Assembly: GCA_963804235.1 (NCBI GenBank)
Contig: CAWDPP010000057.1
Coordinates: 13,603 to 77,602 of the forward strand
Source: an uncultured Alphaproteobacteria bacterium
Lineage (GTDB): Bacteria > Pseudomonadota > Alphaproteobacteria > ATCC43930 > CGMCC-115725
Direction: 5' to 3'
DNA length: 64,000 nucleotides
Shown here: positions 9,920-30,539 of the stretch, piece after piece
Numbering within the stretch: position 1 is the first letter of the stretch
Layout of the letters: every line of letters starts with the position of its first letter
Program-made: the position numbers and the translations under genes
The notes under the pieces: generated by a model
The model's database searches: none
What the model was told of the DNA's origin: nothing
What the model saw: the letters and a program-made list of their open reading frames with translations, nothing else

Positions 9920-10110
9920 CGCGCGTCTTTCGGCATTTCGTAGATCGTCGCGGGCTCGGCCTCGGGCGGCACGTGGCCGCGCACGCGCGCGATGAGCAGC
10001 TCGAGGCTGCCCCAGGCGCGATAGATCTCGGCCTTCTGCGGCTCCGACAAGGTGAGCCCGGCGCGCGCCAGCAGAGCGTCGAACTCGGCGCGGGTGAGGG
10101 CCGCCGTCAT
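9916..10110 (-). CDS. small amidase-partner protein (AtzG/DUF4089-like, GatC-analogous); tentative
   Basis: 64-aa ORF MTAALTRAEFDALLARAGLTLSEPQKAEIYRAWGSLELLIARVRGH.... It is coupled on both sides: ATGA overlap with the dioxygenase stop and GTGA overlap with the amidase start. Size and position match the small subunits that accompany AtzE-type amidases. Confidence 0.55.
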   Translation of the reverse strand: MTAALTRAEFDALLARAGLTLSEPQKAEIYRAWGSLELLIARVRGHVPPEAEPATIYEMPKDAR

Positions 10111-11305
10111 GCGAGCTCCACGACGGTGCCGTCTTGCGCGCGGCCCTGGGCGCGGTACTGGCCGATCTTTTCGAGCAGCGGCGCATCGGAAACGGCATAG
10201 AGAACGGCGTCATCCGCGCCCGCGTTCAGATGCCGCCGCCACAGGAAATTCGGGATCACGAAGAAGTCGCTCTCGCGCCACTCCAATCGCGTGCCGGCCA
10301 CTTCGGTCGCGCCGCTTCCGGCGATGACGCAATAGAGCGTGCTCGCGGTCTCGCGCTTCCATGCCGTCGTCTCGCCCGCGCGCAAAAGCTGCGCCGAATA
10401 GTCCAGCGTCGGGAAGACGGGGGCGCCGTTGCCCGGATTGACGCAGCGCACGCGCACGCCCTCGTAAGGATCGCCCGCCTCGCCGCGCAAGCCGTCGAGC
10501 GATGCGCGGATCGCGGCACCGCGATAGTGCAGCATCGGCGTGCCGCCGCTGCCAGGGGCCGCGATGATCGGGCGCGAAGCTCGGCACCATGCCGCCCGCG
10601 CCGAACATGCGCTCGGAATAATCGGGCGCCGCGCGCACCTTCTGCGCCTTCGCGTTGCCTTCGCGCTCGCCCGGAAAGGCCTCGTCGAGCCAGCCGCAAT
10701 CGAGATACTCGACCAGCGGCCAATCGAGAATGTCGGCCCAGATCACCGGCTCGCCATCCTCGTTGCCGTGATCGTGCCAGGTGCCGGCGGGCGTGAAGAT
10801 GAGGTCGCCGCGTTCCGCGACGCAGCGCTCGCCCTCGATCGTGGTGTAGCCGCCCTTCGCCGACAGGATGGTGCGGCTGGCGTTGGGCGTGTGGCGATGG
10901 ACCGGCGCCACGTCGCCCGGATTGTAGATCGAGATGGCGCAGCGGATGACGCTCGACACCTGCAACCGGCCGCCCAAGCCCGGATTGGTGAGGAGGAACT
11001 GCTGCCGGTCGGCGAACTCTATGGGCGGCACGTCGGCGGTCTTGGCGATCTCGGCGATGCGCGCGAGATAGGGCGCGATGTCGCGCCAGCGCCACAGCCA
11101 CGGCACCGCCTTCATCTGCCCCGCCGCGACCCGGCCCGCGGCGAGCGGCGCGTGCCGCCTCGTTGCCGTAATCGCGGAACCACGGGCGCTGCGCCGGCGC
11201 GTTCGCCTCGGTCCTGAGCCAGATGTTGAGCGCCCGCGCCTCGCCATTGAGGCGCTCCATCGCCGCGCGCGCATCGGACGAAATTTTGCCGCGAGCCTCG
11301 TCCAT
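10107..11305 (-). CDS. bicupin dioxygenase, gentisate 1,2-dioxygenase-like; two frame breaks
   Basis: Three frame pieces. First: MDEARGKISSDARAAMERLNGEARALNIWL. Second: MKAVPWLWRWRDIAPYLARIAEI...NPGDVAPVHRHTPNASRTILSAKGGYTTIEGERCVAERGDLIFTPAGTWHDHGNEDGEPVIW. Third: TPMLHYRGAAIRASLD...YCVIAGSGATEVAGTRLEWRESDFFVIPNFLWRRH. The metal motif is HRH...WHDH. Breaks sit near 11150 and at the G4 run 10555-10558. Confidence 0.8.
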
Positions 11306-11339
11306 CGCCGCCGACTCTAGCCGAGCGCCGCGCCCGCTG

Positions 11340-12400: not shown

Positions 12401-13416
12401 ATGCAAATCCTGCGATGCGCCGTGGCGGCGCTTTCCCTGGCCCTCGCAGCTCCCGCTCGCGCGCGCGGCCGAGCCGCTCACCATCCGCATCGCCTGGGCC
12501 GCCGTGCCGGGACAATTGCCGGCGGTGCTCTACCAGAAGCGCGACATCCTGCGCCATTACGGCCAGAGCTACACGGTCGAGCCGGTCTATAGCCGCGGCA
12601 GCGGCACGCAGATCACGGCGCTTGCGTCGGGCGAATTGCAGATGGCGCTCTATGCGCCCTCGGCCTTCGCGCTCACGATCGAGCGCGCCGGGATGGACGA
12701 CATCCGCATCATCGGCGACGCCACGCGCGACGGGTTCGGCGATTACTACTCGCGGCAATACATGGTGCGCGCGGCGAGCGCGATCCGCACGATCGACGAT
12801 CTGAAGGGCAAGGTGCTGGGCGTCAACAGCATCAGCGGCGCCATGGACATGGCGCTCCGCGCGGGGCTTGCGCCGCCACGCGCTCGAGGACAAGCGCGAC
12901 TATCACATCGTCGAGGTCGATTTCCCCAACATGTTTCCCATGCTGACGAGCGCCAAGATCGATCTCGGCTGCTTCACGACGCCGTTCTCGTTCACGGCCG
13001 ACAAATCGGGCGAGGCGCGCACGCTCTTCACCATGAAGGACCTGGTGGGCGAGCAGGACATCACCATCATGGCGGCGCGACAATCCTTCATCGCGGCCAA
13101 CCGCCAGGCGCTGGTCGATTTCTTCGCCGATTCGCAGCGCGCGATGCGCTGGTTCTACGACCCGGCGAACCGCGCCGAGGTGATATCCATCATCGCCGCC
13201 TTCACGAAGCAGCCGGCGTCGGCCTATTCGGACTGGCTCTTCACGCACGCCGACGATTACCGCGATCCCGATCTCCGGCCCAATCTCGACGCCGTCCAGC
13301 ACGACATCGACCGCGAGGTCGAATTGGGATTCCTCGACAAGGGCTTCGACGTCAAGCGCTATGCCGACCTGTCGCTGATCGACGACGCCGTGAAGGAGCG
13401 CGCGAGCGAGAACTAG
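12401..13416 (+). CDS. NMT1/THI5-like ABC-type substrate-binding protein; two frame breaks
   Basis: Three frame pieces. Signal peptide: MQILRCAVAALSLALAAPARA. Middle: AEPLTIRIAWAAVPGQLPAVLYQKRDILRHYG...GAMDMALRAGL. Tail: RRHALEDKRDYHIVEVDFPNMFPMLTSAKIDL...LSLIDDAVKERASEN. Breaks sit near 12460 and at the G4 run 12863-12866. It is a paralogue of 58065-59083. Confidence 0.8.
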
Positions 13417-14667: not shown

Positions 14668-15464
14668 TTACTCCTTGTTGATGCTGATCAGGCGTCGAGG
14701 AAGCCCAAGACTCTTCGCCGCGAAGGCTTCGGGCTGTTCGACCTGGACGGCGTGTCCGGCCCTGGCGATGGTGTCGATGCGGGCGTTCGGCAGCAGGCGC
14801 GCATAGCGCTCGAGATAGTCCGCCGAAACGAGCCCGTCGCTTTCGCCGCGCAGGAAGAGCGTCGGCATGGCGAGGCGATGGAGCCGGTGCTTGAGCTTCG
14901 GATTGTGCATCCATGGCTCCCACACCAGCATGGCCAGCGTTTCGCGGTTGCGCACCATGACGGTGAGCTCGTCGTCAGGAAGACGCGACGGGTCGATCAC
15001 GTGCTTCGCCGGGTCGTGAAACAGCCACTCGTTCACGCGCTCCTGCGGCACGGCGAAGATGTCGGGAATGTCGAGCTTCTCGACCGATCCCGTCTTGACG
15101 CCGACCGGCGCCACCAGCACCAGCTTGCGGAACCGCTCCGGCGACTTCGACGCCATTTCCGCGGCGATCCAGCCGCCGAGCGAGCAGCCGACGAGATCGA
15201 CTTTCTGCGAGGCCGAGCTTGTCCATCAGCTCGAGATGGATGTGCGCGATGTCGTCGGCCTGATCGAGCCAGTCGGGCAACTCGGAATGGCCGAAGCCGG
15301 GGTGCGAGGGCGCGATGAGCCGCCGCCCCTTGGCGAGCAGCGCGACATAAGGCCTGGTTCGGCAGGAAGCCCTGCCCGCTGTGCAGAAAGAGCAGCGGCG
15401 CGCCGCTACCGTCCTCGTGCAGCTCGAGCTCGAGTCCGGCAAGCTTCAGCATCTCTTTCTTCAC
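14668..15464 (-). CDS. alpha/beta hydrolase; two frame breaks
   Basis: Three frame pieces. First: MKKEMLKLAGLELELHEDGSGAPLLFLHSGQGF. Second: PYVALLAKGRRLIAPSHPGFGHSE...ELMDKLGLAE. Third: VDLVGCSLGGWIAAEMASKSPERFRKLVLVAPVG. The nucleophile elbow is GCSLGG. Breaks sit near 15355 and at the T3 run 15202-15204. Confidence 0.82.
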
Positions 15465-15615
15465 AGGTTCGAGCCTCCCTCGCGCGCAAAGTGCCGGACC
15501 CCACTATTTCACCCCGCGAAAAGGGGCGCAATAGAGCCTGCTTCTGAACTGTCGCGGCGGCTCCCCGTTTCGCGTATGGTCCGCAAGTCGTCCCGCCCCG
15601 CCTAGGCCCCGCCCG

Positions 15616-17219
15616 ATGCCGACCGTCCGCAATCGCCGCAAGATCCTGTGCGTCTTTCCCGCCTACAGCCCGTCTTTCGGCACGTTCGAATATGCCTACA
15701 AGCTGCGCGGCGGGACACGCGCCTTCATGCCGCCGCAAGGTCTTCTCGTCATCGCGCTCATATCTGCCGGCCGAGTGGGACATCCGCTTCATCGACGAGA
15801 ACATCGGCCGCGCGCGGCCCAACGATTTCGCCTGGGCCGACGCCGTGCTCGTCTCCGGCATGCATGTGCAGCGTCCCGCGATCCTCGACATCGCGCGGCG
15901 TGCGCACCGCTTCGGCAAGGCGGCCGCCTTGGGCGGCCCGTCCGTTTCGGGCGCGCCCGAGCTCTACGGCGAGTTCGACTATATCCATGTCGGCGAGCTG
16001 GGCGACGGCACCGACCGGCTCATCGCGCTGCTCGACGCCGATCCGCGCCGGCCGCGCGAACAGATCCGCTGCGACACGGTGGAGCGCGTGCCCTTGACCG
16101 AGTTTCCGGCGCCGGCATATCACCTCGCCGAGATCGCGCGCTATTTCATCGGCAGCGTGCAGTTCTCGAGCGGCTGTCCCTACCGCTGCGAATTCTGCGA
16201 CATCCCGGCGCTCTACGGCCGCAACCCGCGCCTCAAAACGCCGCAGCAGGTGACGGACGAGCTCGACGCCATGCTGCGCCACGCCAATTTGGGCGCGGTC
16301 TATTTCGTCGATGACAATTTCATCGGCAACCGCCGCGCCGCGCGCGAGCTGGTCGAGCATCTGCTCCAGTGGCAGAAGGATCGCGGCTATCCCGTCGAGT
16401 TCGCGTGCGAGGCGACGCTCAACATCGCCAAGTATCCGGACCTCCTCGCGCTCATGCGCGAGGCGTACTTCAGCACCGTCTTCTGCGGCATCGAGACGCC
16501 GGAGCCCGAAGCGCTCCGCGCCATGCGCAAGGAGCAGAACGCGACGATCCCGATGCTCGAGGCGATCGCGACGCTCAATTCCTTCGGCATCGAGGTCGTG
16601 GCCGGCATGATCATGGGGCTCGACACCGATACGCGCGACACGGGCGCAGCGCATCGTCGAGTTCGCGACCGCCGCCAACATTCCGATGCTGACGCTCAAC
16701 CTGCTCCAGGCGCTGCCGAAGACGCCGCTGTGGGACCGGCTCGCGGCCGCGGACCGCATCCTCGACGACCCCGCGCGCGAATCGAACGTGCGCTTCCTTT
16801 TGCCCTATGACGAGGTCGTCGCCATGTGGCGCCGCGCCATCGCCGAGCTCTACGCGCCCGAGGCGCTCTATGCGCGCTTTGCCTACAATGTCGAGAACAC
16901 CTATCCGAACCGCATCCGCCCGCCCGCCTCGCCGGCGCGCGCCTCCTGGGCGAACATACGCAAGGGCATGCGCATCCTCGCCAACATCCTCCTCCGCGCC
17001 GGCGTCACGGCCGATTATCGCGCCACATTCTGGCGCCATGCCTGGCCGCTCTTGCGCGGCGGAAAGATCGAGGACGTGATCCATATCGGCCTCGTCGCGC
17101 ACCATCTCATCGAGTTCTCGCGCGACGCCGTCTCGGGCGGCCAGAATGCGTCGTTCTACTCGGCCAAGATTCGCGACCGCAGCGCGATTGAGCTAGAACC
17201 GGCCGACCTCACCCCCTGA
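15616..17219 (+). CDS. B12-binding (class B) radical SAM protein with DUF4070-type C-terminal region; two frame breaks
   Basis: Three frame pieces. First: MPTVRNRRKILCVFPAYSPSFGTFEYAYKLRGGTRAFMPPQGLLVIA. Second: YLPAEWDIRFIDENIG...GCPYRCEFCDI (CxxxCxxC)...IETPEPEALRAMRKEQN...GMIMGLDTDTRDTG. Third: IVEFATAANIPMLTLNLLQALPKTPLWDRL...VAHHLIEF. Breaks sit near 15760 and 16645. Confidence 0.85.
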
Positions 17220-17230
17220 CGCGGCGCCAT

Positions 17231-18259
17231 ATGCGCATCGCCACCTTTGTCACCTGGCTGATCGGTGCCGGGCTTCTCGCGGCCCTGCTCGCGACGAACG
17301 ACGCCGGAAAGCTGTTCGCCGCCGCCTGGCGGCTGCACGGGTGGCTCATCGTCATCGCGCTCTATCATGGCGTGCCGCTGCTGTTCGACGTGCTCGGCTG
17401 GCGGCGGCTGTTCGAGCATCCGCCGGATTTCCTGCGCCTCCTGCGCATCCGCTGGATCGGCGAGGCGGTCAACAGCCTCCTGCCGGTGCCCCATCTCGGC
17501 GAGATCCTGCGCGCCAAGCTGCCGCACGACGAGGGCAGCGACCTCACCGAGTCCGCCACCTCGGTGATCGGCGACGTCACCGTCGGGCTCGCGACGCAGA
17601 TCGTCTTCATCGCGACCGGGCTCGCGTACTTCGCGCTGCGGAGCGGGCGCGACATGCTGTTGCGGTCGTCGCTGACGATCGCGGCGCTCGCCCTCTTCGG
17701 CGTGGGCTTCTACTGGGCGCAGCGGACGCGCTGGTTCAGCCGGGCGGCGGGCGCCGTCGGCCGCCTCACCGGCTCGCGCACGCTCGACGGCTCGGTCATA
17801 CGCCGGGTCGAGGACGCGCTGCACCGGCTTTACCGGCGTCGCACCGCCTTGGCCTGGGCGTTCGCCTGGCGGCTCCTGAGCTGGTTCGCCGGCGCCGGCG
17901 AAATCTGGCTCGTGCCCTATCTGCTCGGCCAGCCGATCGGCATCGGCGACGCCGTGACGCTCGAAAGCCTGAGCCAGGGCGCGCGCGCCGTGGCCTTCAT
18001 CATCCCCGGCGGCCTCGGCGTGCAGGACGGCACGCTCATGGTGCTGTCGCAGCAGCTCGGCCTCGGCGGCGAGCTCGGCCTCGTGATCTCGCTGGTGAAG
18101 CGGTTCCGCGAGCTGGCGCTCGGCGTTCCCGCGCTCGTCCTGGCCTATTCGGGCGAGCTCAAGCGCTGGCGCCGGCTCACCCCTCAGGCCGGCAGCACGC
18201 GGCTCAGCATGCGCGCCACGTTCGGCATGATGCGCGGCCGCAGCAGCCGCGAATCATAG
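17231..18259 (+). CDS. UPF0104 / LPG-synthase-TM-like (flippase-like, HpnL-like) integral membrane protein
   Basis: Intact 342-aa polytopic ORF starting 12 nt after the radical SAM gene. WIGEAVNSLLPVPHLGEILRAKL and AFIIPGGLGVQDGTLM are typical of this family. Its 3' end overlaps the convergent di-iron gene by 76 nt. Confidence 0.72.
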   Translation: MRIATFVTWLIGAGLLAALLATNDAGKLFAAAWRLHGWLIVIALYHGVPLLFDVLGWRRLFEHPPDFLRLLRIRWIGEAVNSLLPVPHLGEILRAKLPHDEGSDLTESATSVIGDVTVGLATQIVFIATGLAYFALRSGRDMLLRSSLTIAALALFGVGFYWAQRTRWFSRAAGAVGRLTGSRTLDGSVIRRVEDALHRLYRRRTALAWAFAWRLLSWFAGAGEIWLVPYLLGQPIGIGDAVTLESLSQGARAVAFIIPGGLGVQDGTLMVLSQQLGLGGELGLVISLVKRFRELALGVPALVLAYSGELKRWRRLTPQAGSTRLSMRATFGMMRGRSSRES

Positions 18260-19038
18260 CGCCCCATGCGGCGCTCCTGCTCGCGCGCGCAGAGCGCGAA
18301 GAACGCGCGCGGCTTCAGCGTCAGCCCGACCGCTTCGCCGCCGGTGCGGGTGAAGTTCTTGTCGTCGACGCTGCGCGCCAGGGACAGCCGCCCCCACGCC
18401 TGGACCGCGAGCGCGGCGAGGCGCTGCAGATCGAGCTTCACCCGCGCCGGGAAGCCGCGATTGACCCGCGTATAGGCCACCCAGTTGACGAAAAAGAGAT
18501 TGTGCCGTGCCTCCTCCTGGATGATCGGCTCGAACACCTCGACGAGCGGCGCCGGGAAGAAGCCCGACTCCTGCGCCAGCCTGAACAGGCCGAAGGCGAA
18601 GAACGAATCGAAGCACTCGCCATAGCCGGTCCGCAAAAACCCCCACTCGGCGTCGGCAATGGCGACGTACGGCTCCTCCTCCTTTAGCTCTATGCGGTAG
18701 TGCCGGATCATGTGGCCCAAGACCTCTTTATGGCGGCGCTCCTCCCAGGCATTGAGGGCGACCGCCTTCTGGATGAGGGGGTCCCCGCTCGCCCCGGCCA
18801 GCGCCTCCATGCGCCGCGCCGCCCGCTCTTCGGTTGCGACCGCAATGTCCCAGAACGGCAGGCCGACCAGGCGCCGCAGCGCGTCCGGCGCGAGGGCCGG
18901 CCATGCGATGACGGCAGGTCGATAGGGATCGAAACTATCGAGCAGCATGTGACAGAATAGTTGCCTGTGCGCCTCGGATCCGACGGCAATCGCTTGATTT
19001 TGCGCGATCTCGCTTTCGAGTTGGGATGTTTCCGTCAT
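18184..19038 (-). CDS. ferritin-like di-iron carboxylate protein (putative oxygenase)
   Basis: Intact 284-aa ORF. It carries two ExxH motifs (WEERRHKEV and IIQEEARHNLF), each preceded by a lone Glu (VATEERAA; GYGECFD). This is the four-helix-bundle di-iron ligand pattern. Confidence 0.7.
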   Translation of the reverse strand: MTETSQLESEIAQNQAIAVGSEAHRQLFCHMLLDSFDPYRPAVIAWPALAPDALRRLVGLPFWDIAVATEERAARRMEALAGASGDPLIQKAVALNAWEERRHKEVLGHMIRHYRIELKEEEPYVAIADAEWGFLRTGYGECFDSFFAFGLFRLAQESGFFPAPLVEVFEPIIQEEARHNLFFVNWVAYTRVNRGFPARVKLDLQRLAALAVQAWGRLSLARSVDDKNFTRTGGEAVGLTLKPRAFFALCAREQERRMGRYDSRLLRPRIMPNVARMLSRVLPA

Positions 19039-19118
19039 AGCCTACCGTATAGCACAAGGGTTGCGGCGCGGCTGGGCCGCGTCGCCGACCGGACCTAGGA
19101 AGACAGGGCGAAACGACC

Positions 19119-20465
19119 GTGACCCTGACCGCTCCCGTGCTTGCCGAAGCGCCTGCCGCCGCCGTCCCGCAACCGCTGCGCGTGGCGGCGCTGGTCAACC
19201 TGGCGCAAGGGGCCCGCGCCGGCGGGCACGTCAAATGCTGGGAACGGCTGGCCCAGGCCGCGCTCGGCTTCGAGGGCACGCTCGACCTGACGATCTACTT
19301 CATGGGGAGCGAGCCGGCGCTGCGGCCGCTCGGCCGGAACGTGCGCTACATCGTCGAGCGGCCGGTGTTCGGGACCCACCGCGTGCCGTTCCTGTCGCAC
19401 GTGCCCGACCACACCGACCTCGCGCCGTGGCACGCCCGGCTCGCGCGGCAACTGTCGCAGTACGACGTAATCCACACCACTGACGCCTATTTCGCCTTCG
19501 CGCGCACCGCGTTCGCCGTGGCCCAGCGCCGGGGCATTCCGCTCGTCACGTCGGTGCACACGGATACGCCGCGCTATGCCCGCGTCTTCACGGCGCAGAC
19601 GGTGGAGCGCCTGTTCGGCACGGGTCTCGCCGCGCGCGCGCTGCTCGATCGGCTGGGCGTCGCGCGCTACGCCGAGCGCCGCATGCGGCGCCAGCTCGAG
19701 CAGCATCAGCGCGGCTGCCAAGGCGTGTTGGTGTCGCGCCCCGATCAGCTCAAGGCGGCGCGCGCCTTGAGCGGCGGCCGCGCCGGCCTGCTGCGCCGCG
19801 GCATCGACCACTCCTTCTTCAATCCCGGCAAGCGCGACCGCGCCTGGCTTGCGGCGCAGTACGCCATCGCGCCCGATGCCGTCGTCATCGCCTTTGCCGG
19901 CCGCGTCAATCGCGGCAAGAACGTCATGCTGCTCGCCGACGCCGTCGCCGAGCTTGCGGCGGCGGGCACGCCGGTGCATCTCTTCTGCGCCGGCGAGGGC
20001 GAAGAGCGCGCCGCGATCCGCGAGCGGCTGCCGCGCAACGCCACCTGTCCCGGCAGCCTCGAGCCCGAAACGCTGGCGCACATCTATGCCAGCGCCGACA
20101 TCTTCGCCTTCCCGTCGGCGATCGAGGAATACGCCAACGTCGTGATCGAGGCGCTCGCCTCGGGGCTGCCGGTGCTGGTGGCGGGCGAGAGCGGCATGGA
20201 CCGCGTCATCAGCGAAGGCGAGACCGGGTTCGTACTTCCGAGCAACAACAGCTTCGCCTGGTCGCGCTATCTGGCGCTGCTCGCACACGATCGCGCGCGG
20301 CGCGAGGCGATGGGCGCGCGCGCGCGGCGCTATGCCGAGCACCGGCTGCCGACCTGGGCGGACGTGCTTGGCGAGGACATTCTGCCGACCTGGCAAAGCG
20401 CCTTCGCGGCCGCGCGACAGTCCGATGTCCGCCCGCTCCGTCCTGCTGCTCGTCCCGCATCCTGA
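19119..20465 (+). CDS. GT4-family (GT-B fold) glycosyltransferase
   Basis: Intact 448-aa ORF with a GTG start. The C-terminal half ...FAGRVNRGKNVMLLADAV...ADIFAFPSAIEEYANVVIEALASGLPVLV...ETGFV carries the EX7E-type retaining GT4 signature. Confidence 0.85.
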   Translation: MTLTAPVLAEAPAAAVPQPLRVAALVNLAQGARAGGHVKCWERLAQAALGFEGTLDLTIYFMGSEPALRPLGRNVRYIVERPVFGTHRVPFLSHVPDHTDLAPWHARLARQLSQYDVIHTTDAYFAFARTAFAVAQRRGIPLVTSVHTDTPRYARVFTAQTVERLFGTGLAARALLDRLGVARYAERRMRRQLEQHQRGCQGVLVSRPDQLKAARALSGGRAGLLRRGIDHSFFNPGKRDRAWLAAQYAIAPDAVVIAFAGRVNRGKNVMLLADAVAELAAAGTPVHLFCAGEGEERAAIRERLPRNATCPGSLEPETLAHIYASADIFAFPSAIEEYANVVIEALASGLPVLVAGESGMDRVISEGETGFVLPSNNSFAWSRYLALLAHDRARREAMGARARRYAEHRLPTWADVLGEDILPTWQSAFAAARQSDVRPLRPAARPAS

Positions 20466-21189
20466 CGACGAGGTCGTCGGCTGCGCCGCCATGATCCGCC
20501 GCGCGCGGGCGGACGGCGCGCGCTTCTTCGCGCTCTATCTCACGACCGGCGTGCCGACGCGCGAGAGCCTGTGGCCGTGGCAGCGCCGCGATCACGCGAC
20601 CCGCATCGCGCGCCGCCGCGCCGAGGCGCTGCGCGCCGCCGGCATGCTCGGCATCACGCCCGTGGGCTTCTGCGATTGGCCGGCGCGGGGCTTGAAGGCG
20701 GCGCTCGGGCCGGCACTGGCGCGCATCCGCGCAGCGCTCGCCGCGCACGCGATCGACGAAATCTGGGCGCCCGCCTGGGAAGGCGCGCATCAGGACCACG
20801 ACGTCGCCAATTTCCTGGCCGCGCGGCTTGCCTCCGATTGCGCGGTCGTCGAGTTCGCGGAATACCACCTGGCCGGCGGCCGTGCCGTGTCGGGCCGCTT
20901 CAAGACGCCGGACGGGCGCGAGACGGTGCTGCGCCTCGATGCCGCGGAGCGGCGCTGGAAGCGCGAGCTTCTTGCCACTTATCGCTCCGAGCGCGGCAAC
21001 CTCGGCCATATCGCGTGCGAGACCGAGTCGTTCCGGCCGCTCGCGCGTTATGATTACCGCGCGCGGCCGCACGAGGGCCGCCTGTTCTACGAGCGCTTTC
21101 AATGGGTGCCCTTCCGCCATCCGCGCATCGACTTCGAACGGCCGGAACGCGTGCTGGCGGCGCTCGCGGACTTTCGCGACGGAGCCTAG
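20425..21189 (+). CDS. PIG-L/LmbE family de-N-acetylase
   Basis: ATG at 20425 opens MSARSVLLLVPHPDDEVVGCAAMI, the PIG-L zinc motif (A/P)HPDDE. It also has ...EGAHQDHD. It overlaps the GT4 3' end by 41 nt. Confidence 0.82.
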   Translation: MSARSVLLLVPHPDDEVVGCAAMIRRARADGARFFALYLTTGVPTRESLWPWQRRDHATRIARRRAEALRAAGMLGITPVGFCDWPARGLKAALGPALARIRAALAAHAIDEIWAPAWEGAHQDHDVANFLAARLASDCAVVEFAEYHLAGGRAVSGRFKTPDGRETVLRLDAAERRWKRELLATYRSERGNLGHIACETESFRPLARYDYRARPHEGRLFYERFQWVPFRHPRIDFERPERVLAALADFRDGA

Positions 21190-24122: not shown

Positions 24123-24850
24123 TGGCGCTCGCGGCTATCGCGCTCGCGTTCGCGCTGGTGACCTTGTTCATGCCGGCGCTCGGGCCGCTCTTCGCGCGCG
24201 CCTGGCCCGATGTCGTGCCGCCGATCTATGGCTTCGCGTCGTTTCCCAGTCTGCTCCTGTCGCACGCCGAGATCGTGGCGGCGGCGAGCACGGCGGCGAC
24301 CGCGGCGGCGCTCGTCCTCGGCATCTTCGTGACCAGGCCGTGGGGCCGCGATTTCCGCCCGCTGCTGGGCGCGATCGCGACGATCGGCCAGACCTTTCCG
24401 CCGGTCGCGGTGCTCGCCATCGCGGTGCCTGTGCTCGGCTATGGCGACCTGCCGACCTTCGTCGCGCTTGGTCTCTACGGCTTCCTGCCGATCGTCGCCA
24501 ACGTCATCGCCGGGCTCGAGGGCGTGCCGCCGGGCGTGCGCGAAGCGGCGCAGGGCATGGGGCTGTCGTCGTGGCAGATCCTGCGCGACGTGGAGCTGCC
24601 GTTGGCCGCGCCCGTCATCCTCGCCGGCGTGCGCACCTCGGTCGTGATCGCGATCGGCACGGCGACGATCGGCTCGACCGTGGGCGCGGTGACCTTGGGC
24701 ACGCCGATCATCGATGGGCTCGTCGGCGACAAGCTGCCCTATGTGATCGAGGGCGCCGTGGTGGTGGCGCTCTTCGCGATTACCGCCGACATGGTGTTCG
24801 AGCGGCTCGACCGCGCGCTGCGCCGCCACGCCGGCGGGCGGGCGCGCTAG
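24122..24850 (+). CDS. yehW: osmoprotectant ABC transporter permease (YehW-like)
   Basis: ATG at 24122 overlaps the yehX stop (TGATG). It opens MALAAIALAFALVTLFMPALG and includes ...GVPPGVREAAQGMGLSSWQILRDVELPLAAPVILAGVR. The stop is TAG 24848-24850. Confidence 0.85.
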   Translation: MALAAIALAFALVTLFMPALGPLFARAWPDVVPPIYGFASFPSLLLSHAEIVAAASTAATAAALVLGIFVTRPWGRDFRPLLGAIATIGQTFPPVAVLAIAVPVLGYGDLPTFVALGLYGFLPIVANVIAGLEGVPPGVREAAQGMGLSSWQILRDVELPLAAPVILAGVRTSVVIAIGTATIGSTVGAVTLGTPIIDGLVGDKLPYVIEGAVVVALFAITADMVFERLDRALRRHAGGRAR

Positions 24851-25540
24851 CTAGTCCTCGTCGTCCTCCGGTTCCTTGCGCTCGGCCTTCGGGATGTAGC
24901 CGACGCGCTGCGCCAGCCACGAGGCCATCTCGTCGCCGCGGACGACCGCTTCGGCAATGACCTCGCGCGCCGACATGTCGCGATCCTGGCCGATCCCGAG
25001 CCGCTCTTTGATGTTGGCTACGATGGCGAGAAACTCCGCCAGGATCCGTTTTTCGCGTTCGCGCTTGCGCGCCGCTTCCTCGCCGTCGAACCGGTAGCGC
25101 TCGACCACGCCGAGCATCTTGGTCAGCACCTCGAGCGAGCGCGATTTCTCGTAGAGCTTTACCTGGAACCCGCCGCGGTGGCGCACCACCTCGCGCACCG
25201 CGGCGCTGTCGTCGGGCGCGATGCGGCGCGCGGCGCGCAGGCGCGGCCCTTTCTTCGAGAAGGTGACGATCCGGCCCATGTCGGCCAAGGCGATGCGCGC
25301 GTGCTCCTGCGCGATGCGGTCGACCGAGAGGCGCAGCCGTTCCGAGCGTTCGCCCTGCGCCTTGCGCAGCGCCTGGATGACGAGCGGCTCGTGCAGCAGG
25401 CGCCACGCCGTCTTCGCCGCGTTGCGCTCGGAATAGCCCGCGCGCAGCGCCGCCGCCTTGGGCCGCGGGTCGCGCAGATACTCCTCGACGAAGCGTCGCT
25501 GCCGCGGCTTCAGGCCGTCGTCATGCCCATCCATGCCCAT
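24851..25540 (-). CDS. phage terminase small subunit (Terminase_2-type TerS), orphan
   Basis: Intact 229-aa ORF. MGMDGHDDGLKPRQRRFVEEYLRDPRPKAAALRAGYSERNAAKTAWRLLHEPLVIQAL is the characteristic TerS N-terminal HTH. The C-terminus is acidic (PEDDED). No terminase large subunit, portal or capsid gene is present in the window. Its stop (cta 24851-24853) abuts the yehW stop directly (TAGCTA). Confidence 0.85.
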   Translation of the reverse strand: MGMDGHDDGLKPRQRRFVEEYLRDPRPKAAALRAGYSERNAAKTAWRLLHEPLVIQALRKAQGERSERLRLSVDRIAQEHARIALADMGRIVTFSKKGPRLRAARRIAPDDSAAVREVVRHRGGFQVKLYEKSRSLEVLTKMLGVVERYRFDGEEAARKREREKRILAEFLAIVANIKERLGIGQDRDMSAREVIAEAVVRGDEMASWLAQRVGYIPKAERKEPEDDED

Positions 25541-25573
25541 CGCGGGCGCATCCGGTGAGTGCCATTTTCCGGA

Positions 25574-26047
25574 CTATCTCTTTGGGATTGCTGGCGAATC
25601 GCCGGATACCGGCGGATTTTCCAGCGTGTCGTAGCCGGTCCCGGAATCGCCTTTCCGGCTCTCGCGATTACTTTCGGCGCGGGCGAGGGCTGCGCGGACG
25701 CGCTGCTGCGCCGGGGTGCGCTTCGGCCGCACGCGCCGCGCGGCCGTGCGCGGGATCGCGTCGTCCTCGCCCGGATCGCGCGCCACGATCTCGGCCGGCG
25801 CATCGGCCGCGCCGGGATCGTCCGCAGACGCTCCGACCGCCGGATGCGTGGTCATGCGCACGGTGCCGACATAGGTCCCGTCGGCGGCCAGGGTCTCGCA
25901 TTCGAAGGCGCGCCAGCCATGCGCGCCGGCCGCGAGCACGCGCGTCACGACGGCCAAATCCTCGTCGGATAGGCCAAGTCTTATGCCCAATTCGCCGGTC
26001 GCGACTTTCGCCGCGACGACATGGCCCAAGGTTTCGGCAGATGGCAT
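25574..26047 (-). CDS. hypothetical protein (orf157) co-oriented 33 nt upstream of terS
   Basis: 157-aa ORF with a good SD (GAGGAG 6-8 nt before ATG 26047). The N-terminal ~70 aa look globular (MPSAETLGHVVAAKVATGELGIRLGLSDEDLAVVTRVLAAGAHGWRAFECETL...). The C-terminal half is basic and probably disordered (RRVRPKRTPAQQRVRAALARAESNRESRK). I recognise no family. Confidence 0.55.
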   Translation of the reverse strand: MPSAETLGHVVAAKVATGELGIRLGLSDEDLAVVTRVLAAGAHGWRAFECETLAADGTYVGTVRMTTHPAVGASADDPGAADAPAEIVARDPGEDDAIPRTAARRVRPKRTPAQQRVRAALARAESNRESRKGDSGTGYDTLENPPVSGDSPAIPKR

Positions 26048-26391
26048 GCGGAATCTCCTCGTCAGTCCGCACCAGCCCGTGGCGGACGGCGGCGGATTTT
26101 CGTCGCACGCTATGTATCATATTTACGTACGACTGTTGGTCGGTCGCTTATACGGCCGATGCGTTGCGCGCATTGCAGCGAATGGATCGCGGCGTCGCAA
26201 AGACGCACCGGGCGAAGGTGTTGCTGCTCGCGCGCGATCCTCGGGCACCCAACAACGCCGTAAGGAAGCTCGCGGGCGTCGCAGGGTATCGGTTGCGGAT
26301 CGGAGATTGGCGCGCAATCTATCTGCTGCGCGATGAGGTCCTGACGATCGTGGTCGTCCGGATCGGGCATCGAAGCGAGGTTTATCAATGA
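26041..26391 (+). CDS. RelE/ParE-superfamily type II toxin (start uncertain; conserved core begins at Trp codon 26137)
   Basis: WSVAYTADALRALQRMDRGVAKTHRAKVLLLARDPRAPNNAVRKLAGVAGYRLRIGDWRAIYLLRDEVLTIVVVRIGHRSEVYQ is a typical RelE/ParE core. Its stop overlaps the antitoxin ATG (ATGA at 26388-26391). There is no ATG/GTG/TTG at the usual MW position. The nearest in-frame ATG is 26041, which overlaps the orf157 start. ATG 26112 would come into frame if one T of the T3 run 26122-26124 is spurious. Confidence 0.7.
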   Translation: MACGISSSVRTSPWRTAADFRRTLCIIFTYDCWSVAYTADALRALQRMDRGVAKTHRAKVLLLARDPRAPNNAVRKLAGVAGYRLRIGDWRAIYLLRDEVLTIVVVRIGHRSEVYQ

Positions 26392-26759
26392 GCCGGCAAA
26401 TCATCACTCAAGGAGGCAAGCCCGCCTTCGTCGTCATTCCGATCGAGGAATGGCGGCGCATCGAGGCGACACTGGAAGATCGCATCGACCGCGCTTCGTT
26501 GCGCGCATTCCTCGAACATCCGTCGGAGACCTTCCCCAACTCGGTCGCAGCCGCGATGCTCGATGGCGTGCATCCGCTCAAGGCGCTGCGCGAGTATCGC
26601 GGCCTCACCCAGGCGCAACTCGCCGACGGCGCCGGGACGAGCGCGGTCTATGTCTCGCAGATCGAGCGCGGCGAACGGCGCGCCGGGCGCAAACTGCGGG
26701 CAAAAATCGGCAAGTGCCTGCGCGTTCCGCCGCACTTGCTCAATGCGGCCGAGGAGTAG
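26388..26759 (+). CDS. antitoxin with N-terminal Phd/YefM-like segment and C-terminal XRE-type HTH (HigA-like arrangement, toxin gene first)
   Basis: Intact 123-aa ORF. KPAFVVIPIEEWRRIEATLEDRID is the antitoxin beta-strand/helix motif. LREYRGLTQAQLADGAGTSAVYVSQIERGER is the HTH_3 region. Confidence 0.82.
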   Translation: MSRQIITQGGKPAFVVIPIEEWRRIEATLEDRIDRASLRAFLEHPSETFPNSVAAAMLDGVHPLKALREYRGLTQAQLADGAGTSAVYVSQIERGERRAGRKLRAKIGKCLRVPPHLLNAAEE

Positions 26760-26761
26760 GA

Positions 26762-28245
26762 TCAGCCCTTCGCCGCGCGTGCGGCCGATGCGCCGGCGAT
26801 GCGGCCGAAGACGGCGCCCGAGGTGAGGCCGGAGCCGCCGGGATAGTTGAAATAGAAGAGCCCGCCGACCAGTTCGCCCGCGGCATAGAGGCCGGGGATC
26901 GGCCGGAAATCGAGATCGACCACTTCGCCGTCCGTGGTGATGCGCAATCCGCCGAAGGTGAAGGTGAGGCCGCAGGTGACGCCGTAGCCCTCGAACGGCG
27001 GCTCGTCGATCGTGTTGGCCCAGTTCGATTTCGGGATCGCGAGCCCCGTGGTGCCGCGGCCGTCCTTGACGTTGGGATTGAACGGCACGTCGGTGCGCAC
27101 GGCCTTGTTGTATTCGGCGATGGTCTTGACGAACTGCGCCGCATCGACGCCGTCGAGCTTCTGCGCCAGCTCCTCGATCGTCGCGGCGGTCACCTTGGTG
27201 ATGCGGCGGATGTTGTATTCGTCGCGCTGCAGGTGCTTCACCTTCTTGTCCCAGATCTGCCAGGCGAACTGGTTCGGCTGTTCCAGGATGACGCGGCCGT
27301 ACTTCGCATAGGTGTAGTTGCGGAAGTCGGCGCCCTCGTCGACGAAGCGCCGCCCGGTCGCGTTGACCATGATGGCGAACGGATAGGAATGTTTCTGGAA
27401 CTGGTCGCCGACCGCGAGGTCGCCGAACTCGGGCGCGTTCATGTCCCAGCCGACGGCGTGGCAGCCGGACCAGTTGCCGCAAGGGGATGCGCCGATCGCC
27501 AGCGCCATGCGGATGCCGTCGCCGGCGTTGAAGCGCGAGCCGCGCACCTTGGCGAGATCCCAGCCGGGGCCGAGATAGCGCGTGCGCCATTCGGGATTGG
27601 CCTCGAAGCCGCCGCAGGCGAGCACGACCGCGCCGGCCTTGAGCTCGCTGCGTCTGCACCGCCCGAGCGCACGTGCACGCCCGCGACGCGGCCCCGCTCG
27701 ACGACGAGATCGGTCGCGCGCGCGCCATAGCGGATTTCGACGCCGCGGCGCGTCGCGGCGCTGGTCAACTGCTCGACGAGGCCCGGGCCGCCGCCGACCG
27801 ATTCGACCGTGAGCCCGCCCCAGAACTTGAAGCGGCCGTCGATGCGGAACGCCTGGCGGCCATAGATCGGCACGAAGCGCACGCCCTTCTCGCGCATCCA
27901 GTTGGCGGCGGCGAAGCTGCGCGTCACCAGCAGCTCGACCAGATCGGGATTGGCGCGGTACTGCGTCACGCGCGCCATGTCGTCGAAGAACTGGTCCTGC
28001 GTGTAGGTGCCGAAATCGGAGGTGGCGATTTCCTGCGCGGTGAGATCGGGGATGAGCGTCTTGATGTCGTCGACGCCGTTATAGACGATGCGCATGGAGC
28101 CGGCGGTGAAGCGGCTGTTGCCGCCCGCTTCCTCGGGCGGCGCCGCCTCGAGCATCAGCACCTTGGCGCCCGCCTCCTCGGCCGCGAGCGCTGCGCAAAA
28201 GGCGGCGTTGCCCGCGCCGACCACGATCACGTCATGCGATGCCAT
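26762..28245 (-). CDS. FAD-dependent oxidoreductase of the fumarate-reductase/KstD/TcuA flavoprotein family; one frame break
   Basis: ATG at 28245 opens MASHDVIVVGAGNAAFCAALAAEEAGAKVLMLEAAP (dinucleotide fold), then ...GGNSRFTAG. The C-terminal part is GLYAAGELVGGLFYFNYPGGSGLTSGAVFGRIAG. The break is near 27640-27655. Confidence 0.8.
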
Positions 28246-28271
28246 CCCGATCCTCCTCGCGCGCGAGTGGG

Positions 28272-28337
28272 TCTTGCGCAGCGGAGCGAAGCAATCTCGG
28301 GGATTGCTTCGGCGCCGTCGCGGCGCCTCGCAATGAC
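28272..28337. repeat. REP-A element (variant copy)
   Basis: Sequence cttgcgcagcggagcgaagcaatctcggggattgcttcggcgccgtcgcggcgcctcgcaatgac. It shares the inner arms CGAAGCAATC/GGATTGCTTCG and the terminal CTCGCAATGAC with the other copies. Confidence 0.8.
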
Positions 28338-28387
28338 GGCGCGGCTTGGCGTATAACCGGGCGAACAAGTTTTGATGGGAAGAAGCG

Positions 28388-29488
28388 ATGGCCAGACTCG
28401 ATTTCGCCATGTGGGACGCGGTCGGCGGCTATGCCGAGCAATCGGTGCCGATGGCCGACATCTATGACGAGCACATCCGGCTCGCGCGCGAGGTCGAGGA
28501 GCTGGGCTACCACTCCTATTTCGTGATCGAGCACCAGAACTCGCCGATCGGCCGCATCACCGCGCCGACCGTGTATCTGACCGCGGTCGCGCGCGCGACC
28601 ACGCGGCTGCGCGTCGGCGCGATGATGTGGCAGCTGCCGTTCTATCATCCGATCCGGCTCGCGCAGGAAGTGGCGATGCTCGACCATCTGTCGCACGGGC
28701 GGGTCGAGTTCGGCACCGGCATCGGCGTGCACGAGCACGAATTCATCCGCTGGGGCGTCGACTATTACCAGCGCGCGGCGATGGCGGGCGAAGTGCTCGA
28801 CATCGTCAAGCGCGCCTGGACGCAGGACGAGGTGACGTTCGAAGGGAAATATTTCCACTTCGACGAGGCGCTGCCGCAGCCCAAACCGTTCCAGAAACCC
28901 TATCCGCCGATCTGGGCCGCGGTGCACAGCGACGCCTCGGTCGAGTTCGCCGCGCGCAACAATTACCACGTGTCGCAGAACCTCGACATCGACGAGGTGG
29001 TGGCGCAGAAATTCGACCTCTATCGCAAAATCTGGCGCGAGTGCGAACACAAGGGGCCGATGCCGCGCGTCTTCCTGCAGCGCCAGATGCATGTCGCCGA
29101 GACCGACGCCAAGGCGCGCGAGGAGGCCGAGCCCTATCTCCTCGGGCGCTCGGGCGGCGCCGTGCCGGTCGGCGGCGGGCCGATCGGGCAGACGCGCATC
29201 GGCTGGGGCTCGAACGCGCGCGGCATGGGGCGCGACAGTCTGCGCCCCGACGACGCGCGCCGCGGCGAGGCGATCAAGAAGGCCGGCGAGAGCTGGGACT
29301 ACAACATCGAGAACGGCCTCGCCATCGTGGGCTCGCCCGAGACGGTCATCAGGAAGCTCGAAGAGGGCAAGAAGCGGATCGGCTACGACATCTTCTGCGG
29401 CAACCACGAGATCGGCCGCATGCCGAAGGAGCTCGCGCTGAAATCGGTGCGGCTGCTCGGCAAGGAAGTGATCCCGGCGTTCAGGTGA
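28388..29488 (+). CDS. LLM-class (luciferase-like) flavin-dependent oxidoreductase
   Basis: Intact 366-aa ORF MARLDFAMWDAVGG...YHSYFVIEHQNSPIGRITAPTVYLTAVA...LAQEVAMLDHLSHGRVEFGTGIG. Confidence 0.85.
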   Translation: MARLDFAMWDAVGGYAEQSVPMADIYDEHIRLAREVEELGYHSYFVIEHQNSPIGRITAPTVYLTAVARATTRLRVGAMMWQLPFYHPIRLAQEVAMLDHLSHGRVEFGTGIGVHEHEFIRWGVDYYQRAAMAGEVLDIVKRAWTQDEVTFEGKYFHFDEALPQPKPFQKPYPPIWAAVHSDASVEFAARNNYHVSQNLDIDEVVAQKFDLYRKIWRECEHKGPMPRVFLQRQMHVAETDAKAREEAEPYLLGRSGGAVPVGGGPIGQTRIGWGSNARGMGRDSLRPDDARRGEAIKKAGESWDYNIENGLAIVGSPETVIRKLEEGKKRIGYDIFCGNHEIGRMPKELALKSVRLLGKEVIPAFR

Positions 29489-29491
29489 CAG

Positions 29492-30539
29492 CTAGGCTTC
29501 GGTGACGCGCCAGCGAATCTTTTCGCCGCCGCGGTGGATGAGGGCGCGCGCGTCCGGGCCTTCGACCGCAACCTCCTCGGGCACGGTCCACGGGCTCGCC
29601 TCGAGCGTGATGGTGTCGGCATTGACCGGCAGCCCGTAATGGCGCGCGCCGTTCAACGCGGCGAACGCCTCGAGGTTCGCGAGCGCGCCTTCCTCCTCGA
29701 ACACCTGCGCGTAGGACTCGATCGCGACCGGCGCATTGAACAGGCCGGGAATGCCGGTCGGATCGAGCTTTTTCGCCACCGGGTGCGGCGCCGAATCGGT
29801 GCCGAGGAAGAAGCACGGATCGCCCGAGGTGGCGGCCTTGCGCAGCGCCAGCCGGTCGCTCTCGCGCTTCAGCACCGGCATGCAATAGAAATACGGCTTG
29901 ATGCCGTAGCCGAGCATGTCGGTGCGCGTCAGCATCAGGTGATAGGGCGTGATGGTGGCGCCCAGTTGCGGCGCGGCGCTGCGTCACGAAATCGACCGCG
30001 ATCGCGCTGGAGATATGCTCCAGCACCATCTTGAGGCCGGGGAAATCCGTGAGCCAGTGCCTGAGCCAGCGGTCGATGAACACCGCCTCGCGGTCGAACA
30101 CGTCGATCGCGGGATCGGCCTCCTCGCCATGGATCAGGAGCGGCATGCCGATCTTCTCCATGCGCGCCAGCACCGGCCTGATCTTGCGGAAGTCGGTGAC
30201 GCCCGCGGCCGAGTATGTCGTGGCGTTGGCCGGATAAATCTTCACCGCCGTGAAGACGCGCTCGCGAAAACCGCGCTCGACCTCGTCGGGGCTCGTCTCG
30301 TCGGTCATGTAGCAGGTCATGAGCGGCTCGAATTTCGAGCCTTCGGGCAGAGCGGCGAGAAGCCGCGCGCGGTACGCCACGGCGTCGGCGACGCTGATCA
30401 CCGGCGGCACCAGGTTCGGCATGATGATGCCGCGCCCGAACGCGCGCGCCGAGAACGGCAGGCTCGCCTTCAGCATGGCGCCGTCGCGCACGTGCAGGTG
30501 CCAGTCGTCGGGGCGACGGATGGTGATGCGCTCCGCCAT
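29492..30539 (-). CDS. pyrC: dihydroorotase, E. coli-type (class II); one frame break near 29950
   Basis: ATG at 30539 opens MAERITIRRPDDWHLHVRDGAML (HxH), then ...IMPNLVPPV...FTAVKIYPANATT...MPLLIHGE. The next frame gives GATITPYHLMLTRTDML...YCMPVLKRESDRLALRKAATSGDPCFFLGTDSAPH. The protein is collinear with E. coli PyrC throughout. Confidence 0.88.

Follow-up and report, generated by a model that had tools for sequence, protein, structure and literature searches.

We analyzed a block of five genes (15616–21189) in a 64-kb stretch of DNA from an uncultured alphaproteobacterium, hereafter the window (contig CAWDPP010000057.1; ~70% G+C). With a probability of roughly 0.6, the block is an island of a Stellaceae-like organism for the tailoring of hopanoids, specifically of bacteriohopanepolyols (BHPs), that combines the known enzyme HpnP with a non-orthologous module of a GT4 glycosyltransferase, a PIG-L-type deacetylase and an HpnL-family membrane protein, and with an oxidation by a di-iron protein. 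Hopanoids are major, sterol-like lipids of bacterial membranes, and their fossils are widely used as biomarkers. HpnP is known; what is new is the four-gene module (GT4, PIG-L, HpnL and di-iron protein), which is undescribed as such and whose function is predicted here.

The first gene, hpnP (15616–17219, plus strand), encodes a class B, B12-binding radical S-adenosylmethionine (SAM) protein with a DUF4070 domain. It is interrupted by two 1-nt insertions, and its repaired product has 533 amino acids. Eleven nucleotides downstream is an intact open reading frame (ORF) for a flippase-like membrane protein of the HpnL family (UPF0104/LPG_synthase_TM; 17231–18259, plus strand). Convergent with this gene, and overlapping its 3' end by 76 nt, is an intact ORF for a predicted R2-like (ferritin-like) di-metal carboxylate protein of an unnamed family (18184–19038, minus strand). 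The GT4 gene (retaining, GT-B type; 19119–20465, plus strand, GTG start) diverges from the di-iron gene with 80 nt between them, and is followed by the gene for a PIG-L/LmbE-type zinc de-N-acetylase (20425–21189, plus strand). The PIG-L ORF opens at 20332, and homologue alignments begin at 20425, giving a 41-nt overlap with the 3' end of the GT4 gene. Upstream of the block are genes for a luciferase-like monooxygenase and for an alpha/beta hydrolase, and downstream is a gene for an OpuAC-type ABC transporter. An earlier reading of the same DNA, made from its letters and ORFs (the sequence-only reading), had placed five genes at these coordinates with a 12-nt gap between the first two. Four of the ORFs agree exactly, but 15616–17219 (1604 nt) is not one ORF and the gap measures 11 nt. 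The motifs it had listed are present (HPDDE in the PIG-L protein; E, EERRH, E and EEARH in the di-iron protein), and a Pfam search found B12-binding (below its cut-off), Radical_SAM, DUF4070, LPG_synthase_TM, Glycos_transf_1, Glyco_transf_4 and PIG-L.

The radical SAM protein scores 68 bits for Radical_SAM and 111 bits for DUF4070, and a marginal 31.2 bits against a cut-off of 32.1 for B12-binding. It contains a CPYRCEFC (CX3CX2C) motif. HpnP is said to have been recognized as the hopanoid C-2 methylase by Welander and colleagues in 2010. Because HpnP-like paralogues share the three-domain architecture, as PMC10697835 warns, reference sequences with their clade labels were taken from the alignment and supplement of that paper and compared directly with the window protein. 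Identity is 57% to the genetically validated HpnP of Rhodopseudomonas palustris TIE-1 (B3QHD1), 64% to the HpnP of Rhodospirillaceae SYSU D60006 and 62% to a second Rhodospirillales HpnP. It falls to 49% for a deep myxobacterial-type branch without shc, to 41% for a myxobacterial relative, and to 34–35% for HpnP-like outgroups that include the Gloeobacter paralogue BAC92182. In a neighbor-joining tree of 17 sequences, built without support values, the window protein lies inside the HpnP clade, between its alphaproteobacterial and cyanobacterial members. Close homologues (64–89% identity) carry the JGI label "hopanoid C-2 methylase". Additionally, the protein P0229, which is 65% identical to the window HpnP, shares a 90% cluster with BAC90255.1 of Gloeobacter violaceus, labelled HpnP in the tree of Hoshino et al. 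2023 (PMC10697835, supplement). In published work on Alphaproteobacteria, the cut-off for HpnP was set at ~55% similarity to the TIE-1 protein following two rounds of PSI-BLAST, and the remaining B12 radical SAM proteins stayed under 34% (PMC12583986). Based on the 57% identity to TIE-1 HpnP, compared with 34–35% for the outgroups, and on the placement in the clade, sequence comparison identifies the protein as HpnP, the hopanoid C-2 methylase. It resembles members of the clade in its three domains, its CX3CX2C motif and an identity of 57–65%. However, the gene in the window is frame-broken, and its neighbors are hpnL, the di-iron gene, GT4 and PIG-L rather than core hpn genes.

The sequence-only reading had likened this enzyme to HpnJ and proposed a phylogeny, which places it with a known enzyme in the HpnP clade rather than making it an analogue of HpnJ. 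A role as an HpnJ-like ring-contraction enzyme is rejected on this placement and on a score of 66.9 bits against the cut-off of 577.6 for TIGR03471; a true HpnJ, encoded next to a relative of the di-iron gene, reaches 805.6 bits. Roles as HpnR (53.6 bits versus 650), BchE or PhpK are likewise rejected on scores and on the HpnP placement. At one locus (L082, 10001–17646), a protein with 71% identity to the HpnP of the window is encoded beside genes for phosphoenolpyruvate (PEP) mutase, a phosphonopyruvate decarboxylase-like protein, an aminotransferase/nucleotidyltransferase and PhyH, with two CDP-alcohol phosphatidyltransferase genes nearby. Such a setting suggests that phosphonates or phosphonolipids, and not hopanoids, are made there.

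The membrane protein scores 226.9 bits with the HpnL model TIGR03476, above its curated cut-off of 195.65, and matches PF03706 with 93 bits. Its orthologues adjoin HpnA, squalene-hopene cyclase (SHC), HpnN, HpnK and HpnI in loci L003, L102, L109 and L135. Six other UPF0104 proteins encoded next to GT4 genes were tested, and all score above the HpnL cut-off, including that of L168, which has no hpn gene within 10 kb. A connection to hpn genes, suspected in the sequence-only reading, is thus borne out by the curated HpnL cut-off as well as by the occurrence of GT4/PIG-L and of the di-iron family inside hpn clusters elsewhere. In a neighbor-joining tree without support values, most HpnL copies linked to GT4 group apart from those linked to HpnIJK, with one exception clade, which suggests that the two are distinct subfamilies. 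Two HpnL paralogues occur in a single metagenome-assembled genome (MAG) of the Stellaceae (L003; 10860–11801 and 16485–17249), one in the GT4/PIG-L block and the other after hpnI-hpnK, and no hpnJ lies between that hpnI and hpnK. The function of HpnL is called unknown in two recent surveys (bioRxiv 10.1101/2025.07.29.667474; PMC12583986).

The GT4 protein contains the E-x7-E motif. Its top curated match, the PEP-CTERM/XrtA GT4 model (83.8 bits), is uninformative. The informative matches are to two retaining GlcNAc transferases, MshA (82 bits versus a cut-off of 462.5) and GpgS (NF053787; 81.3 bits versus 480), and the BshA model gives 44.7 bits versus 273.7. Of the solved structures it matches 3c4q/3c48 best, which bear the title 'Predicted glycosyltransferases' and which we take to be MshA of Corynebacterium glutamicum. 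When a profile of 36 GT4 sequences was used for searching, every name that came back was that of an uncultured MAG (Stellaceae, Alphaproteobacteria, Rhodospirillaceae and Planctomycetota), and a tblastn search of GT4 against PLSDB plasmids gave no match. The PIG-L protein matches PF02585 with 76.8 bits and has intact HPDDE and HQDH zinc-ligand motifs; it scores 25.6 bits against the BshB1 cut-off of 182.5, and the relatives of known structure that come closest to it are TT1542 and diacetylchitobiose deacetylases. The models for HpnI (TIGR03472, GT2) and HpnK (TIGR03473, YdjC) are not among the matches listed for either protein, in agreement with the earlier claim that the transferase and deacetylase are not orthologous to those of hpn, and tblastn of HpnI and HpnK against the window found no match.

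The pairing of a GT4 N-acetylglucosamine (GlcNAc) transferase with a PIG-L/LmbE deacetylase is also seen in MshA/MshB, BshA/BshB and PIG-A/PIG-L. However, the proteins of the block score far below the equivalog cut-offs of the MshA/MshB and BshA/BshB systems (82 versus 462 and 25.6 versus 182 bits), and a mycothiol or bacillithiol role is rejected on the MshA, BshA and BshB1 scores and on the flanking genes. In contrast to the thiol pathways, the flippase-like membrane partner points to a lipid product. We predict that the GT4 protein is a UDP-HexNAc:lipid N-acetylhexosamine (HexNAc) transferase with BHP as the lipid.

Starting from five GT4 sequences, a scan of metagenomes identified 336 relatives, and 80 of these loci were retained. 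The gene that immediately follows GT4 is PIG-L in 47 of the 53 loci with room for it, an HpnL homologue is found within 2.5 kb of GT4 in 14 of 24, and about half of all loci (~40 of 80) contain the GT4-PIG-L-HpnL triad. In L135 the arrangement is HpnD-HpnE-SHC-HpnG-(HpnH, IspH)-HpnA-HpnL-GT4-PIG-L-HpnN, and the hpn genes around the pair reach or exceed their NCBIfam cut-offs (HpnG is marginal, 186.4 versus 187.1). In clusters of this type the GT4 route stands alone within 17 kb. The order HpnA>HpnL>GT4>PIG-L occurs again in L132, L146 and L154. HpnK or HpnI is adjacent to GT4/PIG-L in L003, L089, L102, L109, L111, L112, L117 and L147; hpnI-hpnK-hpnL is divergent from GT4-PIG-L in L109, and HpnK is beside HpnL-GT4-PIG-L in L089, L102, L111 and L147. 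HpnP is present in six GT4 loci and adjacent in L086, L088, L092, L097 and L157, with the order HpnP>GT4>PIG-L in L092. The di-iron gene is found only with the closest GT4 relatives (at least 57% identity). The conserved core is GT4-PIG-L(-HpnL), and HpnP and the di-iron gene are lineage-specific additions.

Two further arrangements were seen among these loci. The hpnK of L102 (8018–8812), L089, L111 and L147 is a lone YdjC-type gene divergent from HpnL-GT4-PIG-L with no hpnI nearby, so that two types of deacetylase stand beside a single glycosyltransferase. In L167 (9051–11239) a GT4 homologue without an adjacent PIG-L gene is found beside a gene for an MlaA-family lipoprotein; MlaA is a domain of the candidate hopanoid-transport protein 'HpnS' (bioRxiv 10.1101/2025.07.29.667474).

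The di-iron protein has no curated family match in Pfam or NCBIfam, and a profile search with its family against PDB sequences returned chance matches only. The ligand residues E70, E99-E100-R-R-H103, E141 and E175-E176-A-R-H179 are invariant in 18 homologues and form two E...ExxH pairs (E70 with E100/H103, and E141 with E176/H179). An AlphaFold2 model is helical (pLDDT 84.6), and its best Foldseek matches are to ribonucleotide reductase (RNR) R2F/NrdF, R2lox, AurF and acyl-ACP desaturase (TM ~0.5, E ~2e-3). Based on the helical model and the R2-type matches, the protein is predicted to be an R2-like di-metal carboxylate protein and an O2-dependent oxidase, hydroxylase or desaturase. It resembles the R2-like oxidases (RNR R2/NrdF, R2lox, AurF and acyl-ACP desaturases) in its predicted helical structure and in the series of E, ExxH, E and ExxH ligands, but differs from them in a sequence identity of 9–15%, in the TM-score given above and in having no family assignment.

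This family is large, with 2245 matches at E<=1e-5 among the candidates scored, and at least 563 stretches from species-representative genomes encode a relative. They occur in Stellaceae, other Rhodospirillales, Rhizomicrobium, Caulobacteraceae, Paraburkholderia, Pandoraea, Nevskia, Steroidobacteraceae and a Pseudomonas. When neighboring ORFs were clustered in 80 loci and recurrent clusters were scanned with NCBIfam, the recurrent neighbors included HpnJ (805.6 bits), HpnI (455.9), HpnK (344.5), HpnA (499.6), HpnL (278.2) and SHC (785.2). Of the 62 loci that extend 6 kb or more in both directions, 25 contain hpn genes, and the family is hopanoid-associated. Co-directional arrangements are hpnI>hpnJ>hpnK>hpnL>di-iron in Nevskia and Pseudomonas sp. 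NA-150, hpnI>hpnJ>hpnK>di-iron>hpnL in Steroidobacteraceae-type loci, and hpnI>hpnJ>di-iron>hpnL>hpnA in Rhizomicrobium. The idea that the di-iron protein is an O2-dependent substitute for HpnJ is rejected, because the two occur together in at least 17 operons.

Seven loci, L020, L027, L042, L074 (Rhizomicrobium), L040, L062 and L079, have hpnJ followed by the di-iron gene and then hpnL, with hpnA in addition in Rhizomicrobium and hpnI before hpnJ where detected. These operons lack a full-length hpnK (short matches are spurious), and the di-iron gene occupies the usual position of hpnK. In Paraburkholderia and relatives (L021, L026, L029, L032, L034, L036, L043, L046–L048, L052, L061, L076 and L078) the di-iron gene is outside hpn clusters, with an NADPH-dependent FMN reductase-like gene ~1.6 kb upstream; many of these loci also contain a CDP-diacylglycerol diphosphatase (cdh) or CynX-type MFS transporter gene. 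The Pandoraea di-iron gene is likewise away from hpn, beside an NADPH-dependent FMN reductase-like gene and cdh. The FMN reductase-like protein could be the electron donor of the di-iron protein.

The scheme that we infer, from acceptor lipid and sugar to anomeric outcome, flippase activity and di-iron chemistry, would run as follows. HpnP would methylate C-2 of the hopanoid A ring by B12/radical SAM chemistry. At the cytoplasmic face the retaining GT4 enzyme would move GlcNAc, or another HexNAc, from a UDP-sugar onto a side-chain hydroxyl of the BHP, and the PIG-L protein would strip the N-acetyl group to leave a cationic aminoglycosyl-BHP. HpnL (UPF0104) would then translocate this lipid to the outer leaflet, and lipids of this class may be hydroxylated or desaturated by the di-iron protein in an O2-dependent step. 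The logic of GlcNAc transfer followed by de-N-acetylation, put forward in the sequence-only reading, fits the GT4/PIG-L pairing, the HpnL partner and the hpn clusters. Since HpnA, a sugar epimerase homologue, is directly upstream of HpnL-GT4-PIG-L in four loci, the sugar may be one other than GlcNAc. By the stereochemistry of the CAZy families, the anomeric configuration is retained by GT4 and inverted by GT2 enzymes, so the block would yield an alpha-linked isomer of what HpnI makes. The closest worked-out analogue is gpgSDF of Pseudomonas aeruginosa, described below, and HpnI, HpnK and HpnL have the same shape for BHT-glucosamine. By analogy with these systems, we propose that GT4/PIG-L/HpnL is a third, non-orthologous synthase-deacetylase-flippase module, acting on bacteriohopanepolyol.

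A related, described pathway converts bacteriohopanetetrol (BHT)-GlcNAc to BHT-glucosamine (BHT-GlcN) and then to BHT cyclitol ether via HpnI, HpnK and HpnJ (Schmerk et al. 2015 as summarized in PMC12583986). The block resembles this HpnI/HpnK/HpnJ/HpnL branch in HexNAc transfer followed by de-N-acetylation, in its HpnL-family partner and in its hpn-cluster neighborhood, and the di-iron family is itself found inside hpnIJKL operons. However, it has GT4 in place of GT2, PIG-L/LmbE in place of YdjC, and HpnP instead of HpnJ. Given the coexistence with HpnI and HpnK, the product of the block probably differs from theirs; the frequency of this coexistence points to a distinct product rather than a replacement, and the acceptor could be other than BHT. 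The sequence-only reading could match the combination to no described pathway. At the level of the pathway this gives way to the orthologues found inside hpn clusters, which it had itself named as grounds for doubt, while it stands for three of the enzymes, which are uncharacterized. Full-text searches linking hopanoid or hpnI/hpnK with PIG-L, LmbE or GT4 returned nothing relevant in a literature that excluded most subscription journals.

A more specific version of the proposal is tenable but doubtful. GT4-PIG-L-HpnL would be a second, undescribed route to aminoglycosyl BHPs (an alpha-linked BHT-glucosamine isomer or a second amino sugar) with HpnL as its flippase, and the di-iron family would be one of the missing O2-dependent tailoring enzymes, responsible for the hydroxylation that yields BHpentol and BHhexol or for delta-6/delta-11 desaturation. 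Several modifications of the hopanoid side chain still lack known genes. No candidate genes have been given for BHpentol/hexol formation, and those for unsaturation are described as unresolved (PMC12583986). In addition, four Alphaproteobacteria make cyclitol-ether-type BHPs without detectable hpnI, hpnJ or hpnK, and a later-eluting BHT-glucosamine isomer of unknown structure is reported from five species (PMC12583986). If the proposal is true, the GT4/PIG-L/HpnL module could explain both these cyclitol-ether producers and this isomer. The locus would offer a second, non-orthologous enzyme pair for amino-sugar hopanoids as well as a testable function for HpnL, that of the flippase in a synthase-deacetylase-flippase triad. 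The large unnamed di-iron family in hpnIJKL operons is a candidate for O2-dependent hopanoid modification, and an O2-requiring tailoring step, if real, would bear on the use of BHP derivatives as environmental proxies.

Several observations weigh against a hopanoid tailoring island. The hpnP gene is frame-broken in the window sequence, and neither a gene for SHC, as the sequence-only reading had noted, nor other core hpn genes were found in a search of the 64-kb window. The GT4 protein scores far below every equivalog cut-off, and its donor sugar is only predicted; the match of the di-iron fold is weak, and no chemistry can be assigned from it. GT4-PIG-L(-HpnL) occurs without an hpn gene within 10 kb in L166, L168, L105 and L128, and of the 12 GT4 loci that extend 6 kb or more in both directions, only 3 contain core hpn genes. 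GT4/PIG-L often coexists with HpnI and/or HpnK (L003, L109), so these pairs are not simple replacements. Finally, the whole reading proceeds by guilt by association.

An unlikely but serious alternative is that the GT4-PIG-L-HpnL triad makes an amino-sugar glycerolipid (GlcN-phosphatidylglycerol or GlcN-diacylglycerol) and that its proximity to hpn genes reflects membrane-remodelling islands. The precedent is gpgSDF of Pseudomonas aeruginosa, in which the GT4 enzyme GpgS puts GlcNAc on phosphatidylglycerol and the deacetylase GpgD converts the product to GlcN-phosphatidylglycerol, both shown genetically, and GpgF is a UPF0104 predicted flippase; hexSDF of Clostridioides difficile is called analogous (PMC12713373). 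The acceptor in this genetically supported system is phosphatidylglycerol, the GT4 protein of the window matches the GlcNAc-phosphatidylglycerol synthase model nearly over its full length (profile positions 72–349 of 361), and several triads stand alone without nearby hpn genes. The block and the gpgSDF and hexSDF systems share a three-part module of synthase, deacetylase and predicted flippase of the UPF0104/AglD2 type that yields a cationic amino-sugar lipid, a product that is predicted in the case of the block. The clustering of a glycosyltransferase, a deacetylase and a UPF0104 flippase-like gene is found in the window, but orthology to GpgS and GpgD is not: the GT4 score of 81 bits is far below the GpgS cut-off of 480, and the PIG-L fold differs from that of GpgD, which belongs to COG3233 (PMC12713373). 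The flippase-like partner falls in the HpnL subfamily in every copy tested. The GT4/PIG-L pair also lies between HpnA/HpnL and HpnN in complete hpn clusters, and several different arrangements connect it with HpnP, HpnK and HpnI. The predicted acceptor of the block is a hopanoid, whereas that of gpgSDF and hexSDF is a glycerolipid.

The state of hpnP raises the question of whether the locus is decaying, with hpnP a genuine pseudogene and 2-methylation lost in this organism. The gene runs through frames 1, 2 and 3 with +1 shifts near 15757–15760 and near 16643–16648. Both breaks are single-base insertions in the window compared with the 88%-identical L002, and removing one base per site gives the 533-aa protein, which is colinear with intact 530–533-aa proteins of relatives. 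Two independent 1-nt insertions relative to intact orthologues are what decay might produce, and rapid loss of hpnP has been reported in alphaproteobacterial lineages (PMC12583986). However, there are ~9 frame breaks in ~21 kb, which hit at least five unrelated neighboring genes that are intact in L001 and L002, a pattern typical of long-read consensus errors. Genes split over two or three frames compared with their L001/L002 orthologues lie at 10110–11314, 12456–13413, 14701–15494, 15616–17219, 26798–28461 and 29498–30539, and codon-position GC is still gene-like over the hpnP fragments. Because neighboring genes are broken in the same way, the breaks are probably consensus errors of an unpolished long-read metagenome assembly and not gene decay, and we consider loss of hpnP function distinctly unlikely.

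It is more improbable still that two or three unrelated units are adjacent by chance, that is, an hpnP-hpnL hopanoid unit, a GT4/PIG-L pathway of its own for a sugar or a thiol, and an oxidase that belongs to neither. Such a mixture would accord with the dispensability of HpnP and the di-iron gene in many loci and with the Paraburkholderia di-iron gene away from hpn genes. Additionally, L001 and L002 keep the gene order of the window for >20 kb, and for this reason their conservation of the block was discarded as evidence. In contrast, two loci of the Stellaceae, L003 and L004 (~60% amino-acid identity), match the window over 15621–21174 only and have different flanks; in L003, hpnI-hpnK and a second hpnL lie directly next to the block. 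The recurrence of the block with different flanks in these two loci and in many metagenome contigs means that the five-gene grouping is more than chance, and the sharing of nothing but the block suggests that it is mobile. HpnL, HpnP, the di-iron gene and GT4/PIG-L are each found independently in hpn clusters of unrelated lineages. No thiol ligase or inositol-phosphate synthase was recognized in the window, which is partly annotated and in which no search was aimed at them. Of the co-conservation on which the sequence-only reading had staked its case, the recurrence in L003 and L004 stood, but the five genes are not one obligate unit, as HpnP and the di-iron gene vary.

That the block belongs to a lipopolysaccharide (LPS)-core, exopolysaccharide (EPS) or protein-glycosylation cluster is barely credible: the GT4 protein does match EPS and LPS glycosyltransferase models weakly, but all such scores are far below cut-offs, the flanking monooxygenase, hydrolase and OpuAC transporter genes are accompanied by no polyprenyl-phosphate transferase, Wzx/Wzy, further glycosyltransferase or sugar-nucleotide gene, and the 80 GT4 loci show the opposite of embedding in polysaccharide clusters.

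Outside the block, a 1.9-kb stretch of the window (24850–26765) is missing from the otherwise colinear L002. It contains a terminase-small-subunit-like gene (24851–25537, minus strand) and an ORF with a C-terminal ParE-toxin domain (25555–26388, plus strand), which suggests a small remnant of a mobile element or prophage.

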